Source: Candidatus Nomurabacteria bacterium
GTDB taxonomy: Bacteria; Patescibacteriota; Minisyncoccia; Phycocordibacterales; UBA918
Direction of reading: 5' to 3'
Length of the DNA: 64,000 nt
NCBI GenBank assembly: GCA_020632075.1
Contig: JACKGH010000002.1
Location: 11,454 to 75,453, forward strand
Part shown: positions 15,362-31,949 of the stretch, piece after piece
Layout: each line of letters opens with the position of its first letter
Numbering within the stretch: the first letter of the stretch is position 1
Notes under the pieces: generated by a model
What the model saw: only the letters and a program-made list of their open reading frames with translations
Databases searched by the model: none
What the model was told of the DNA's origin: nothing
Program-made: the position numbers and the translations under genes

Positions 15362-15913
15362 CTAAATCTTTACCATACCTTCCCGCAATACCTCCACCCC
15401 ACCCCCCACACACCGCACTACCGTAGAAGCCTGCCCTTCTCGAACTCCACCATCGATCACTTTCGTGATCATGTGTGCCCGCTCGCCAAACTGCGCAAGT
15501 ATCTCAGCGGGCGATGCTGCCGTCGGCTCACCATGGACATTCGCACTTGTGCAGGTAAGCGGCACACCATCACTTTCTTTCATGTACTCAGCGATCAATT
15601 GCTGTGCGAGCGAATCAGATGAGATGCGGAAACTCACTGTGTCATCGGCGGCGCGGCAGTACACTGGCACCACGTCACTCGCCGCAAGCACCAACGTCAG
15701 TGGCCCCGGCAAATACCGCTCTACCAGCTGCCGCGCCGCCTCCGTCACCACCCCCAGCCGCTCAATATCACCAAGATCACGCACCAACCAACTCGCGGTT
15801 TGTGCGGTTTCTCTCGCCTTAAGTACACACAAATGCTCCCACGCAGCTTGATCAAATGCGTTGACTCCAAGCCCGTAAATAGTCTCAGTTGGGTATAGAA
15901 TTATCTCTGTCAT
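15362..15913 (-). CDS. tsaC: L-threonylcarbamoyladenylate synthase (YrdC/Sua5 domain, TsaC)
   Basis: YPTETIYGLGVNAFDQAA and the ...TSAN motif. Start refined to the internal ATG (MTEIILYPTE) because the ORF-track TTG extension runs into a 16-bp palindrome. Confidence 0.8.
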   Translation of the reverse strand: MTEIILYPTETIYGLGVNAFDQAAWEHLCVLKARETAQTASWLVRDLGDIERLGVVTEAARQLVERYLPGPLTLVLAASDVVPVYCRAADDTVSFRISSDSLAQQLIAEYMKESDGVPLTCTSANVHGEPTAASPAEILAQFGERAHMITKVIDGGVREGQASTVVRCVGGGVEVLREGMVKI

Positions 15914-16216
15914 GTGTTCGCAGTATACAACCAATACACGCAAGGGGTAACCCTTGCGTGTATTGGTAAAAAAGTATATAAAAGCACCAGCTCGCGGCCA
16001 TGGCCGCCCCCTCGTTCAAACTACCCACAGTGGATCAGCGAACCTTCACCCGATCATTCGATCCGGGTGTTTTCCCCAGGTACGCTGATCCACTGTGTGC
16101 GGTTTGGTTCGGTTCTCTGACCACTGATTGTTAGTTCTACTTGCTACGTATCATACCTCATTTTTCCACAACCCTCGGTTGACAAAATTTTTTTGTGTAT
16201 CTGACTATGCTGTTTT

Positions 16217-16245
16217 TTTGACAGTTGCCAAGACAGGTATATCAT
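16217..16245 (+). promoter_or_regulatory. Sigma-70-like promoter
   Basis: TTGACA-16-TATCAT, with a second TTGACA at 16178. Confidence 0.45.
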
Positions 16246-16360
16246 TGTAAGTAACAAGTGATACTTGGAGGGGAAACCAAGTCGACTCGCTTCATGTGTG
16301 TGGCTTATGTGTGTTTCCATTCAAACTGCATATGTTTTCTCAGCCAATACCAGCTGTCTT

Positions 16361-16390
16361 CCTGCGTGCCAACGCGGGTTTTTGTTTTCT
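16361..16390 (+). terminator. Intrinsic terminator inside the long leader upstream of the surface-protein operon
   Basis: CCTGCGTgccaACGCGGGtttttgtttt: a 7-bp stem with a G-U pair, then a T-run. Confidence 0.5.
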
Positions 16391-16579
16391 CATTTTTTCT
16401 TCTCGTTTTAAAAACATGACCTGTACCGTTCACGGATCAGAACAGACCTCTATCCGTTCCCGTCTGTGAACAGTACCGAACGAGTTTGTACCGTTCACAG
16501 ATCGACCTGTTTCTTCGTGGGATGTAGAGAAGAAAATTGGCCGAGCATCATTAAAAGGAGGTAATACGCAAATATAAAT

Positions 16580-17365
16580 ATGACTAGAACAACTACTCGA
16601 GTGTTGTCTGTCGCCCTTGCTGCAGTAATGGCTTTGGCAACATTCTCACTTTATACGTTCCAGGCTGCTGCTTACGACAATCACCGTGGTGGTGACGACG
16701 GAGACAGCACCTCAGTATCAACCAACAACAACGCTACTGTTGTAAACAATGTAGACATTAGCGCAAAGACTGGTGGTAATGAAGCAGAAGGTGGAGACGG
16801 TGGTCGCGGTGGTGATGGTGGCGACGCAAGTCGTGGCACCGCAGGTGCTGGTGGCAATGGTGGTCGCGGTGGTGATGGTGGCACCATCACTACTGGCGTA
16901 GCTACTGCTCTCGGCTCGATCTACAACGATGTGAACTACACCAGCGTTACTGTTGAAGGTTGTGGCTGCGACGAGGAAGAGCCACTTCTCTCACGTTTCA
17001 TGTTCTTCGGCAATGACGAAGACGGAAACAAGATCCGCGTTTCAACTCACAACAACGCGATGGTAACCAACAGCCTCGACGTTGACGCCAAGACTGGCTA
17101 CAACGAGGTTGATGGTGGCGATGGAGGTAGCGGTGATGACGGAGGAAACGCTGGCGACCGACATGACCGTAGCAAGTACTCATGGAATCTCTGGTTCAAC
17201 TGGTTCAACAGTAGTACTGGGGGCGACGGCGGTAATGGTGGCGCTGGCGGACATGGCGGCACTATCCGCACCGGCGAGGCATACGCAGCTGGTGATGCAA
17301 CTAACCTTGTAAACACCACTGTAGTACGTGTACTTAATGGCGCTGAGGAGGCACCAGAGGTATAG
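16580..17365 (+). CDS. Secreted Gly/Asp-rich repeat protein
   Basis: Signal peptide MTRTTTRVLSVALAAVMALATFSLYTFQAAA. Two tandem modules NNNA.V.N..D..AKTG.NE..GGDGG followed by GGxGGDGG tracts. The module is shared with the repeats of the 970-aa protein downstream. Confidence 0.7.
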   Translation: MTRTTTRVLSVALAAVMALATFSLYTFQAAAYDNHRGGDDGDSTSVSTNNNATVVNNVDISAKTGGNEAEGGDGGRGGDGGDASRGTAGAGGNGGRGGDGGTITTGVATALGSIYNDVNYTSVTVEGCGCDEEEPLLSRFMFFGNDEDGNKIRVSTHNNAMVTNSLDVDAKTGYNEVDGGDGGSGDDGGNAGDRHDRSKYSWNLWFNWFNSSTGGDGGNGGAGGHGGTIRTGEAYAAGDATNLVNTTVVRVLNGAEEAPEV

Positions 17366-31488: not shown

Positions 31489-31522
31489 CACACCAAAAAA
31501 ACCCCCGAAGGGGTGTTTTTGT
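31489..31522. terminator. Bidirectional terminator
   Basis: aaaaaaACCCCcgaaGGGGTgtttttgt. Confidence 0.65.
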
Positions 31523-31915
31523 ACACATAAGCCGGATTCTGTCGAGCGAAGCTCGGATGATCATTTACCTAGGATGCTTGTTACCAAACACCTCTTGCGA
31601 CTCTCCTAGCACCACTTTTGCAACCACTGTATTGTAGACGCAAAAGTGGTGCTAGGCACGGTCTTGCACGCGAGTAAGGATTTAGCCGTTTCACTCACCT
31701 GGTCTCCCAAGTGACTATCCCCGAGGGGATCCCGTTCCTTTCAGTCAGGGCGTCTCTGCTCGCACCTCTCGGTCGGATCGCGGGCAAAATGAAGGACTCG
31801 TCCTTCATTTTGCCCGCGATCCGCCGCGACGGGTGTTACCCGCTACTCTGCTCCACAACGAGCTGTGGGCGTGTCCGGACTTTCCTCCTCACAAAGTGAG
31901 GCGATCATCGTGCGG
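31520..31915 (-). ncRNA. rnpB: RNase P RNA, bacterial type A
   Basis: The minus strand reads GAGGAGGAAAGTCCGGAC (P4 5' strand) ... GTGAAACGGC ... ACAGAATCCGGCTTATG (P4 3' strand). A short P3 hairpin CCTCACtttgTGAGG, and P2 as GATGATCG/TGATCATC. The ends are approximate. Confidence 0.75.
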
Positions 31916-31949
31916 AAATATTATGCAATAATACTTAAAAATAAGCAAC

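Follow-up and report, generated by a model that had tools for sequence, protein, structure and literature searches.

Three repeats in the leader of a surface-protein operon from a Candidatus Nomurabacteria bacterium as candidate strands of an RNA switch

Bacterial leaders in which alternative helices compete are familiar from attenuators of the trp type, which use 1:2 and 2:3 helices, and from thiM-like riboswitches, which act through anti-SD and anti-anti-SD platforms. The leader described here, from the window (the whole 64-kb stretch of DNA that was analyzed), resembles these platforms in that it contains three consecutive strands, E1, E2, and E3, the middle one of which can pair with either neighbor to give helices of comparable stability. 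It also resembles them in running from a promoter to a start codon and in being present as a single copy in cis. Unlike in the trp and thiM platforms, however, the alternative helices neither form a terminator nor overlap the SD-like box, and the conserved intrinsic terminator is a separate hairpin upstream of the candidate switch. There is also no leader peptide that consistently covers strand 1, no recognizable aptamer, and no Rfam match.

Other described mRNAs share different features with this locus. C-rich anti-SD pairing within one mRNA controls both translation and RNase III decay of icaR, by way of a UCCCCUG motif in its 3' UTR (PMC3868564). Here, too, a pyrimidine-rich loop (CCUCYA) is complementary to a G-rich box that precedes the start codon in the same transcript, and RNase III might cleave the long helix. 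Unlike in icaR, the motif occupies a hairpin loop about 105 nt upstream, within the 5' UTR rather than the 3' UTR; the predicted pairing spans only 4-6 bp, and 14-20 nt separate the G-rich box from the ATG. Structured 5' UTRs stabilize S-layer mRNAs (PMC10221546), and SD-like boxes such as the STAB-SD element may stabilize an mRNA rather than signal a start (PMC4113751). Like these, our locus combines a long structured leader, a secreted surface protein, a strong consensus promoter, and a 5'-proximal hairpin, and as with STAB-SD, its SD-like sequences (the GGAGGGG loop of hairpin C and the distant AGGAGG box) probably do not serve to start translation. The S-layer and STAB-SD leaders, in contrast, are about 100-200 nt long, with neither an internal terminator nor three-strand competition, and we detected no homology to them.

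Table 1. Features of the leader region and its upstream neighborhood, numbered from the first nucleotide of the window.
Feature	Position	Strand	Sequence or structure	Remarks
Promoter-like site	15954-15959 and 15977-15982	+	TTGCGT and TATAAA	5' of Module A
Module A	16017-16106	+	long 90-nt hairpin, inverted repeat	
Module A, 3' internal loop	16070-16077	+	UUUUCCCC	
Promoter P_B	16218-16245	+	TTGACA, 16 nt, TATCAT	11/12 consensus positions
Hairpin C	16264-16281	+	CUUGG-AGGGGAAA-CCAAG	SD-like G-rich loop; RNAalifold
Intrinsic terminator T	16361-16388	+	7-bp G+C-rich stem, 4-nt loop, U-run	terminator scan
Hairpin P1	16423-16476	+	outer GUAC:GUAC, E1:E2 stem, inner helix GAAC/GUUC, apical loop	
E1	16423-16438	+	GTACCGTTCACGGATC	5' strand of hairpin P1
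P1 apical loop	16447-16452	+	CCUCUA (consensus CCUCYA)	anti-SD-like; same 6-nt loop in 9/13 leaders
E2	16462-16476	+	GTCTGTGAACAGTAC, reverse complement GTACTGTTCACAGAC	shared middle strand, complementary to E1 and E3
E3	16488-16503	+	GTACCGTTCACAGATC	competitor strand for E2
Hairpin P3	16502-16544	+	UCGACC..UUUCUUC / GAAGAAA..GGCCGA	abuts E3
SD-like box	16556-16567	+	AGGAGGUAAUAC	18 nt before ATG 16580

The repeats had been reported in a preliminary description of the window, and the sequences and coordinates given there for E1, E2, and E3 proved to be exact. Repeat searches recovered E1 and E3 as a direct pair of 17 nt (94% identical) and E2 and E3 as an inverted pair of 14 nt (93% complementary); the spacers are 23 nt between E1 and E2 and 11 nt between E2 and E3. 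Within the 64 kb, exact matches to GTACNGTTCAC occur at these three sites only, and an 11-mer in direct-inverted-direct order within 100 nt is found once in the window and in 0/200 dinucleotide-preserving shuffles. The array had also been placed just upstream of the ribosome-binding site, which holds only loosely: it does lie upstream, but E3 ends 52 nt before the AGGAGG (16556-16561), and the box is itself atypically far from its ATG.

We compared 13 distinct, phylogenetically related leaders, namely, that of the window and 12 orthologous leaders from Candidatus Kaiserbacteria, whose downstream proteins are 47-71% identical to the window's. An identical copy of the window's locus is found in samples such as SRR12358676 and SRR15882951. 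E1, E2, and E3 lie at about -150, -107, and -90 from the ATG in these 12 leaders and are kept irrespective of the upstream gene, which varies among loci (TsaD, Sua5, sortase, TSP_3). Core identity is 0.91 for E2 and 0.90 for E3, with E1 the least conserved (0.80). The central GUU of E3 (GTT in DNA) is invariant in 13/13 leaders, and its GUACCGUUCAC is nearly so, whereas the equivalent bases of E1 are kept in 8, 6, and 9 of 13, and this central triplet of E1 is often mismatched with E2. The gaps between the elements range from 26 to 42 nt for E1-E2 and from 4 to 18 nt for E2-E3, with an E1-to-E3 distance of 58-88 nt.

Searches with a covariance model found exactly one copy of the element per locus, always directly 5' of the orthologous gene, and found no E-elements at the distant homologues L016-L019. 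A pattern scan of 185,579 species genomes returned one orthologous locus (L021, in single copy) and one chance match (L020), the latter inside Acidimicrobiales sequence, and a metagenome scan with 10 query sequences returned five loci, one of which (L015) had the leader. When the region was searched against Rfam 15, there was no match at gathering thresholds, and E<=10 brought only chance matches to miRNA or snoRNA. The regulon that a motif search had been expected to define did not emerge, as the 64-kb window holds no second copy and the scan of genomes revealed none. Uniqueness to the locus and lack of conservation in orthologous leaders had been named as the signs that would speak against the array; the motif is indeed unique, yet it is conserved in those leaders. 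A mobile element or dispersed repeat was also considered and was rejected, because both covariance models give one syntenic copy per locus.

Hairpin P1, in which E1 pairs with E2, was predicted by RNAalifold on a structure-blind MAFFT alignment. Across its 20 pairs, 86% of cells are paired, compared with 30-43% in slid controls, and E1 pairs with E2 in 13/13 leaders. Two-sided changes affect seven pairs (13 cells), with a covariation score reached by 0/500 shuffles, and compensatory changes reach the inner helix, outside the repeats. The outer stem reads GUGC:GCAC instead of GUAC:GUAC in leader L024, where it covaries with E1 and not with E3. G.U pairs outnumber A.C mismatches in P1 (27 versus 10 cells), as they do in E2:E3 (18 versus 6) and in the terminator (12 versus 0), and because of this excess, the element can be identified as RNA of the + strand. 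Judged by these substitution patterns, P1 is a genuine RNA helix. Within the UTR, its apical loop is the best complement of the AGGAGGU box in 5/13 leaders and ranks in the top few percent in three more, while in the four to five leaders whose loops are expanded it matches the box weakly; this is suggestive of pairing between the CCUCYA loop and the SD-like box.

The competing helix, E2:E3, has 85% of its cells paired, and its 6-bp core is paired in 78/78 cells. Changes within the core comprise 13 one-sided substitutions, all of which preserve wobble pairing, and zero two-sided ones, and the covariation score of the helix was matched by 271/500 shuffles. The case for E2:E3 is therefore made by conservation and by wobble-only changes, a pattern that transition bias could partly mimic. 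A search for another partner of E3 found only an invariant 4-bp UACC:GGUA contact of about zero energy and no other conserved partner.

Both folds are feasible in 13/13 leaders, and they are similar in predicted stability. The energies of the P1 and E2:E3 folds are -23.3 and -20.9 kcal/mol in the window, -18.3 and -18.0 kcal/mol in L022, and -24.7 and -25.9 kcal/mol in L024, and the gap between them is ~0.3-9 kcal/mol across the 13 leaders. When the energies of the two folds are compared, P1 is the more stable in 12/13 leaders, and the unconstrained minimum free energy (MFE) structure contains P1 in eight leaders and E2:E3 in five. Since the cores of E1 and E3 are identical, whichever of them is released from E2 presents the same sequence. 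The locus has the comparable free energies of a bistable switch, with two-sided changes in E1:E2 only. There is no U-run after P1 or E2:E3, and the SD-like box is not buried by ordinary nested pairing in either fold. A modest drop in accessibility of the box is predicted for the E2:E3 state in 10/13 leaders, although this is partly an artefact because any pairing of loop and box in the P1 state would be a pseudoknot, which the algorithm cannot score.

Among promoter-like sites, P_B alone recurs at the homologous position across the 13 leaders; from it, transcription would start at about 16252, giving a 5' UTR of about 330 nt. E1-E3 lie ~170-250 nt downstream of P_B and beyond terminator T, and a search of the 13 leaders found no consistent promoter between T and E1. 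Because of this promoter position and the lack of a promoter in the interval, we infer that RNA polymerase reads through T and that E1-E3 are part of the mRNA leader. Hairpin C begins about 12 nt after the predicted start and has 94% of its cells paired. The terminator is kept in 13/13 leaders, with two-sided changes in 5/7 pairs, and P3 has 80% of its cells paired, with two-sided changes in 7/12 pairs, a count reached by 6/500 shuffles. The leader thus shows two marks of a structured cis-regulatory RNA, compensatory substitutions (in P1 and P3) and strand-specific pairing (in P1, E2:E3, and T).

The SD-like box is well conserved (identity 0.90, 6/12 columns invariant), but its distance from the ATG is 14-20 nt throughout the 13 leaders, compared with 5-8 nt at the window's other SD-using genes, and at such a distance it is uncertain whether the box is a true ribosome-binding site. 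The canonically spaced SD that characterizes anti-SD sequestration is likewise lacking. Translational coupling to a UAA that follows the GGAGG was rejected, as no conserved upstream frame ends there.

Our preferred explanation, to which we assign a probability of about one-half, is that E1, E2, and E3 are not DNA sites but the strands of a cis-acting, structured 5' leader RNA that contains a three-strand switch. Transcription would begin at ~16252 from the TTGACA/TATCAT promoter, and RNA polymerase would read through the conserved internal terminator. Once E1 and E2 have been made, they would fold into P1 and display the CCUCYA loop on the persistent inner stem. E3, which has the same sequence as E1, could then take E2 from E1 to form a compact E2:E3 hairpin that abuts P3, so that the leader would have two mutually exclusive folds of similar stability. 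The balance between these folds would set expression of the operon posttranscriptionally, through translation initiation and/or mRNA stability or processing, and could be shifted by some input, whether a protein, a small RNA, a ligand, temperature, or ribosome traffic. The likeliest output would be an altered presentation of the anti-SD-like loop and the long P1 helix to the AGGAGGUAAUAC box and to RNases. The comparison shows that the elements are conserved, that P1 is a helix, that the pairing belongs to the RNA strand, that E2 and E3 keep their complementarity, and that the two folds have near-equal energies; actual switching, a trigger, and a controlled output are what we infer. The leader probably tunes translation or mRNA stability, and the element looks like a previously undescribed regulatory RNA.

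The preliminary description had instead read the repeats as three DNA sites to which a dimeric transcription factor would bind cooperatively or a looping repressor would attach, with alternative hairpins at the RNA level as a secondary remark. Three near-identical copies of an 11-16-bp word, repeated and inverted within about 80 bp in direct-inverted-direct order, do resemble an operator array, and a bound protein could conceivably act as a roadblock downstream of a promoter. Unlike in operator arrays, however, the spacing is variable and unphased, both in the E1-to-E3 distance and in the arm gaps, and the copies are unequally conserved, with the GTT of E3 kept throughout and that of E1 often lost. 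Substitutions are strand asymmetric, with G.U in excess over A.C, and covariation extends into the P1 inner helix, beyond the repeats. The sites would moreover lie beyond a terminator, at +170 to +250 relative to the one conserved promoter, with no further copy of the motif in the window or in the matched genome, and a better operator candidate is present upstream of the promoter (16179-16215 in the window), where L011 and L021 have GATAC-N6-GTATC. Spacing, copy inequality, strand asymmetry, covariation, location, and single copy number all contradict the operator layout, which we regard as highly improbable, and it is the secondary remark that is favored, by the covariation in P1 and the retained complementarity of E2 and E3. 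Ribosome-coupled attenuation would follow the logic of the trp or pyrBI leaders: a short upstream ORF would run from an AUG at 16294 through the terminator to a stop near E1, and the terminating ribosome would mask E1 so that E2:E3 forms. The AUG is kept in 12/13 leaders, with the frame open to the terminator in 11/12 (5.1 expected from shuffles) and an AUG-to-terminator distance that is a multiple of 3 in 9/12, and the stop lies within about 5 nt of E1 in the window, L010, L022, and L025. Nevertheless, we find this reading very unlikely, given that neither the peptide nor the frame across T is conserved, that the AUG is missing in one leader, that frame +2 is nearly as open (10/12), and that the stop has no conserved position, falling 30-60 nt short of E1 in roughly half the leaders. 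There is also no SD at a working distance from the AUG, the G-rich loop being 18-21 nt upstream, and the terminator that the ORF would cross is a hairpin separate from both P1 and E2:E3.

The remaining alternatives accept a leader RNA. One possible, if tentative, explanation is a static structured leader. P1 and P3 would be fixed hairpins on the mRNA of a very abundant surface protein and would either stabilize this mRNA, as barriers to 5'-3' or endonucleolytic decay, or promote its processing, as RNase III substrates. E3 would then be single stranded and conserved through recognition by a protein, an RNase, or the 30S subunit, and its identity with E1 would be the by-product of an ancient duplication. 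Covariation backs P1 and P3, whereas E2:E3 has no two-sided change, and P1 is usually the more stable fold. Such a leader would also agree with the reliance of S-layer mRNAs on structured 5' UTRs for stability (PMC10221546) and with SD-like boxes that are stabilizers and not start signals (PMC4113751), given the noncanonical spacing of the box here. What fixed hairpins leave unexplained is why E3 retains the exact bases that pair with E2, why all 13 one-sided changes in the E2:E3 core keep wobble pairing, and why the center of E1 is free to mismatch, which weakens P1 toward the energy of E2:E3. The unconstrained MFE structure also contains E2:E3 in 5/13 leaders. Alternatively, in a more specific version of the switch model, GUACCGUUCAC would be the site of an RNA-binding protein, of which E1 and E3 are two copies and E2 a built-in competitor, and the protein bound to the free copy would decide which helix forms. 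The same sequence is indeed present twice, and E3 is conserved beyond the needs of pairing, including its invariant GUU; an external reader is also plausible because neither helix overlaps the terminator or the SD-like box. We nonetheless consider this version unlikely, since the divergent center of E1 means that the two copies are not equivalent sites, the upstream neighbors vary and include no syntenic candidate for an RNA-binding protein, and the 64 kb contain no second target.

The genes that the proposed three-strand switch would control encode secreted isopeptide-domain (CLIPPER/DUF11) surface proteins. A Pfam search assigned no family to the first two products of the operon, and the 261-aa product has an AlphaFold2 mean pLDDT of 49. 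Of the cell's molecules, these surface proteins are the likeliest mediators of attachment to host cells. Bacteria of the Candidate Phyla Radiation (CPR) are uncultivated and have tiny genomes with few recognizable regulators. To our knowledge, almost nothing has been described about RNA-based regulation in this group, and our search of the literature for leader RNAs in the CPR found none. If the switch is real, it would provide a testable handle on how CPR bacteria tune their surface, as well as a new RNA family. More generally, RNA covariation should be checked in any repeat-inverted-repeat array close to a start codon before the array is called an operator.

The E-element leader lies, together with Module A, within a modular noncoding unit of ~600 nt. 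Module A is single copy and syntenic, and 21 of its 28 pairs show two-sided changes (68 such cells), and its score was reached by 0/500 shuffles; with G.U pairs in 17 cells and A.C mismatches in 16, its strand is not assignable. The loop of Module A is complementary to that of hairpin C in all 13 leaders, and a test of cognate versus noncognate loops, which is not corrected for phylogeny, gave p=0.06 or p=0.001 according to the stretch compared, so that pairing between the two loops is suggestive. This raises the potential that the whole ~600-nt region is one multilayer RNA control unit for the main surface-protein operon. Module A would be a companion small RNA that uses its C-rich internal loop to pair with the G-rich loop of hairpin C, the internal terminator would be conditional and possibly overridden by translation of the short upstream ORF, and the E1/E2/E3 switch would present its anti-SD-like loop to the distant SD-like box. 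We consider this scheme doubtful as a whole; if true, such a relay of contacts between G-rich and C-rich loops would be a new architecture of bacterial gene control. As a separate observation, the other genes of this reduced CPR bacterium are mostly leaderless or preceded by simple SDs.

E1, E2 and E3, the three copies of one word upstream of the surface-protein operon, lie within a ~640-nt stretch without genes. We found them exactly where a preliminary description had placed them, with spacers of 23 nt (E1-E2) and 11 nt (E2-E3) in the window. A repeat search recovered the direct pair as 17 nt with 94% identity and the E2/E3 inverted pair as 14 nt with 93% complementarity, and GTACNGTTCAC has exact matches in the 64 kb at these three sites only. 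When every 11-mer was considered, a direct-inverted-direct layout spanning no more than 100 nt turned up once in the window and in none of 200 dinucleotide-preserving shuffles; the arrangement is genuine and chance is excluded.

Calling the downstream genes a surface operon, as had been done, is fair and apt, given the secreted first product, the DUF11/CLIPPER domain and the sortase genes that adjoin some orthologous operons. CLIPPER is the new name of DUF11, an intramolecular-isopeptide domain in surface proteins (PMC12617251). At its N-terminus the first product carries a signal/anchor helix, followed internally by two repeats that are rich in GGDGG-type motifs and surround an invariant CGC. 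Pfam gave no family for it, and an AlphaFold2 prediction had too little confidence to be used (pLDDT 49). Its ~80 homologues all come from Parcubacteria-type metagenomic sources, and the source names of homologous proteins assign the window to Candidatus Kaiserbacteria (Parcubacteria/CPR).

Features of the intergenic unit and its surroundings (window positions)
Feature	Position	Description
Left neighbor		Sua5/TsaC-like gene, minus strand; TsaD and a MYG1-like gene precede
Inverted repeat	15930-15967	ACCAATACACGCAAGGG gtaa CCCTTGCGTGTATTGGT
TTGCGT	15954-15959	promoter-like pair before Module A
TATAAA	15977-15982	promoter-like pair before Module A
Module A	16017-16106	~90-nt hairpin, U-rich tract at end
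Module A 3' internal loop	16070-16077	UUUUCCCC
Second TTGACA motif	16179-16205	TTGACA + ...TTTTTTGTATC
P_B	16218-16245	promoter, TTGACA-16-TATCAT
Hairpin C	16264-16281	5'-proximal hairpin
Hairpin C loop segment	16269-16276	GGGGAAA
Candidate upstream ORF	16294-16360	region of the conserved AUG
T	16361-16388	internal intrinsic terminator
E1	16423-16438	GTACCGTTCACGGATC, direct copy
E2	16462-16476	GTCTGTGAACAGTAC, inverted copy
E3	16488-16503	GTACCGTTCACAGATC, direct copy
SD-like box	16556-16567	AGGAGGUAAUAC
Operon gene 1	16580-17365	261-aa secreted Gly/Asp-rich repeat protein
After gene 1		small ORF, then 970-aa protein with DUF11/CLIPPER domain and weak peptidoglycan-binding domain
RNase P RNA	31512-31920	minus strand, bacterial class A

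Orthologue contigs were chosen via the 261-aa protein (47-71% identity) rather than via the motif, and scanning metagenomes, as well as species genomes with one DNA pattern, supplied further loci, for a total of 12 further distinct leaders. All leaders keep a gene-free upstream region of ~550-640 nt with E1, E2 and E3 at about -150, -107 and -90 relative to the ATG, and the upstream gene varies (TsaD, Sua5, sortase or a TSP_3 protein). Searched with a covariance model of this region, each locus showed exactly one copy, always immediately before the orthologous gene, and the window showed no second one. The preliminary description had named, as what would refute it, a motif that is unique to this locus and not kept in orthologous leaders; the outcome is split, since no regulon emerged from the window and the loci scanned, yet conservation among orthologues is clear. 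Distant homologues (≤38% identity) lack the E-elements but share the overall layout, in which a promoter leads into a structured 5' part, a terminator inside the leader, another hairpin and finally the start codon; the leader architecture seems to predate the E-element sequence. At two of these loci, L018 (860-1260) and L019 (1200-1490), the leader sequences are unrelated and the plan is alike, with a consensus promoter and an A/U-rich stretch ahead of the ATG.

The preliminary description had read the array mainly as a DNA operator for a dimeric or looping regulator, with alternative RNA hairpins as an aside. The E1:E2 hairpin, P1, was predicted by RNAalifold from a structure-blind MAFFT alignment. 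It comprises 20 pairs with 86% of cells paired (slid controls, 30-43%) and two-sided changes in 7 pairs (13 cells), a covariation score reached by 0/500 shuffles. Much of this covariation falls in the inner helix, where GAAC/GUUC becomes GUUUC/GAAAC or GGUUC/GAAUC; because that helix lies outside the repeated words, its changes are invisible to a binding-site reading. In the outer stem of one leader (L024), GUGC:GCAC replaces GUAC:GUAC. Cells with G.U outnumber those with A.C in P1 (27 vs 10), in E2:E3 (18 vs 6) and in the terminator T (12 vs 0), an excess that would be expected solely of RNA read from the plus strand. Across leaders the gaps range over 4-18 nt (E2-E3), 26-42 nt (E1-E2) and 58-88 nt (E1 to E3) with no helical phasing, and thus behave as loops do. 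Nor are the copies equivalent: the central GUU is invariant in E3, and E1 keeps its three bases in only 8, 6 and 9 of 13 leaders.

The position of the array also bears on this question. Among promoter-like sites, only P_B recurs at a homologous position in every leader; it matches 11 of 12 consensus positions in 9/13, and T, which is conserved and covarying, lies between P_B and E1. No consistent promoter was found in the T-to-E1 interval of the 13 leaders. E1-E3 would thus fall at about +170 to +250 of a ~330-nt 5' UTR and be reached only via read-through of T. Since T separates the sole conserved promoter from E1, either the operon is expressed by read-through or the ~135-nt promoter-to-T segment is also released as a small RNA. 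The operator array failed on four tested features (spacing varies, the copies are unequal, the sites lie far downstream of the promoter and behind T, and no further copies turned up in the window or the loci scanned) and is not supported; the aside on RNA hairpins is. Five independent lines, namely helix covariation, G.U excess, loop-like gaps, unequal copies and position, favor a sense-strand RNA structure, and we put the probability that E1-E3 act as RNA at about 0.9. As a DNA operator or UP-type element, the conserved second TTGACA motif, which precedes the P_B -35 box by ~35 nt, is a stronger candidate than E1-E3; at the homologous position, L011 and L021 carry a perfect palindrome, CGATAC-T5/6-GTATCG.

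Between P_B and T, a conserved AUG stands ~12-20 nt past hairpin C, with a G-poor, CA-rich stretch after it. The frame of this AUG stays open as far as T in 11/12 leaders (5.1 expected), frame +2 is open in 10/12, and the AUG-to-T distance is divisible by 3 in 9/12; the peptide is not conserved. This region may be a translated upstream ORF reading through T.

We also asked whether E3 competes with E1 for E2. On covariation alone E2:E3 is unproven: on P1's alignment it is 85% paired, shows no two-sided change and has a score matched by 271/500 shuffles, and it is possible that P1 is static and E3 constrained separately. The 6-bp core of E2:E3, however, is paired in 78/78 cells, and all 13 one-sided changes in this core are C-to-U or A-to-G transitions that retain wobble. 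At three positions these E2 bases often fail to pair with E1 (4-7 of 13 cells unpaired), and core identity is 0.91 for E2, 0.90 for E3 and 0.80 for E1. With E2 removed, the only conserved partner that we found for E3 is GGUA of the SD-like box, an invariant 4-bp contact of about zero energy. Constrained folding made both states feasible in 13/13 leaders, often a few kcal/mol apart (P1 vs E2:E3, -23.3 vs -20.9 kcal/mol in the window, -18.6 vs -17.3 in L013, -18.3 vs -18.0 in L022 and -24.7 vs -25.9 in L024), and unconstrained minimum-energy folding chose P1 for 8 leaders and E2:E3 for the other 5. We favor a three-strand conformational switch, to which we give about even odds, over a static P1, which is less likely. 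In such a switch, E2 would either lengthen the P1 hairpin with E1 or make an adjacent compact hairpin with E3, the P1 inner stem-loop staying in both states. The E2:E3 hairpin, whose loop is usually YGGGAU, abuts P3, a further hairpin (80% paired, two-sided changes in 7/12 pairs). E1's mismatch-prone center looks like tuning that prevents P1 from locking.

Neither P1 nor E2:E3 is followed by a U-run, and neither helix overlaps the G-rich box, so the element does not work as a classical terminator/antiterminator, nor as a switch that simply sequesters the SD. At its apex P1 carries the loop CCUCYA in 9/13 leaders, complementary to AGGAGGU; its match to the box is the best complement in the whole UTR in 5/13 leaders, in the top few percent in 3 more, and weaker in leaders with an expanded loop. 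In folds with E1 displaced, nested pairing joins the loop region to the box in 7/13 leaders; the contrast with the P1 state is partly methodological because contact in that state would be a pseudoknot. In every leader 14-20 nt separate the highly conserved box from the ATG (16556-16582 in the window), whereas other SD-using genes in the window have spacings of 5-8 nt (e.g., 38204, 36142, 3323, 39935, minus strand). Of the window's 34 long ORFs, ~14 have a TANNNT (-10-like) box 4-14 nt ahead of the ATG, which suggests that many first genes are leaderless in this genome. Given this atypical spacing and these leaderless-looking genes, the box may be a regulatory or stabilizing element, instead of or besides a ribosome-binding site.

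Together, the CCUCYA loop and the conserved distant box suggest a post-transcriptional output. Our preferred reading is that the switch alters how P1's long helix and its anti-SD-like loop are displayed and would thereby modulate translation initiation and/or decay; our confidence in the specific loop-box output is low. Each of these ideas has a precedent: S-layer mRNAs are stabilized by structured 5' UTRs (PMC10221546), SD-like STAB-SD boxes block 5'-3' decay (PMC4113751), and a C-rich motif that pairs with its own mRNA's SD inhibits initiation and creates an RNase III site (PMC3868564). Closest in working principle are mutually exclusive-helix platforms (attenuators and riboswitch platforms), anti-SD elements within one mRNA and stabilizing surface-protein leaders. 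Unlike in trp-type attenuators, the alternative helices include no terminator and a conserved leader peptide is lacking, and unlike in canonical SD sequestration, the box is off canonical spacing. The triple element, which matches no curated RNA family in Rfam, is a new RNA motif of unusual architecture in a lineage whose RNA regulation is essentially unexplored in the literature. The evidence for structure is solid; the function is inferred.

E1-E3 make up one module in a larger, conserved intergenic unit (~600 nt), whose order is TTGCGT/TATAAA, Module A, P_B, hairpin C, AUG, T, P1, E3, P3 and SD-like box. Module A, single-copy and syntenic, travels with the surface operon and has no Rfam match; its covariation is exceptionally strong, with two-sided changes in 21/28 pairs (68 cells) and a score that 0/500 shuffles reach. 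Its strand is not assignable because G.U and A.C cells are equally frequent (17 vs 16), and it might encode a small RNA or serve as an insulator/terminator. Its conserved 3' internal loop is complementary to the GGGGAAA segment of the hairpin C loop, which contains GGAGGGG, in 13/13 leaders (-5 to -15 kcal/mol). Apparent co-changes pair GUUUCCCG with CGGGAAAC in L022, a clean compensatory case, and GUCCCCUU with AAGGGGGC in L010. Since cognate versus non-cognate comparisons gave p=0.06 to p=0.001 with statistics that ignore phylogeny, we treat this putative loop-loop pairing as a lead, not a finding.

Just upstream of the Sua5/TsaC-like gene (likely ATG at 15913, minus strand), two perfectly matched 17-bp arms around a 4-nt loop form an inverted repeat that overlaps Module A's promoter-like -35 box; this repeat was not seen in orthologous leaders without Sua5 at that position. 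Elsewhere in the window, the RNase P RNA, at 101.5 bits, only just passes the gathering threshold of 100, a low score consistent with a divergent CPR RNase P.
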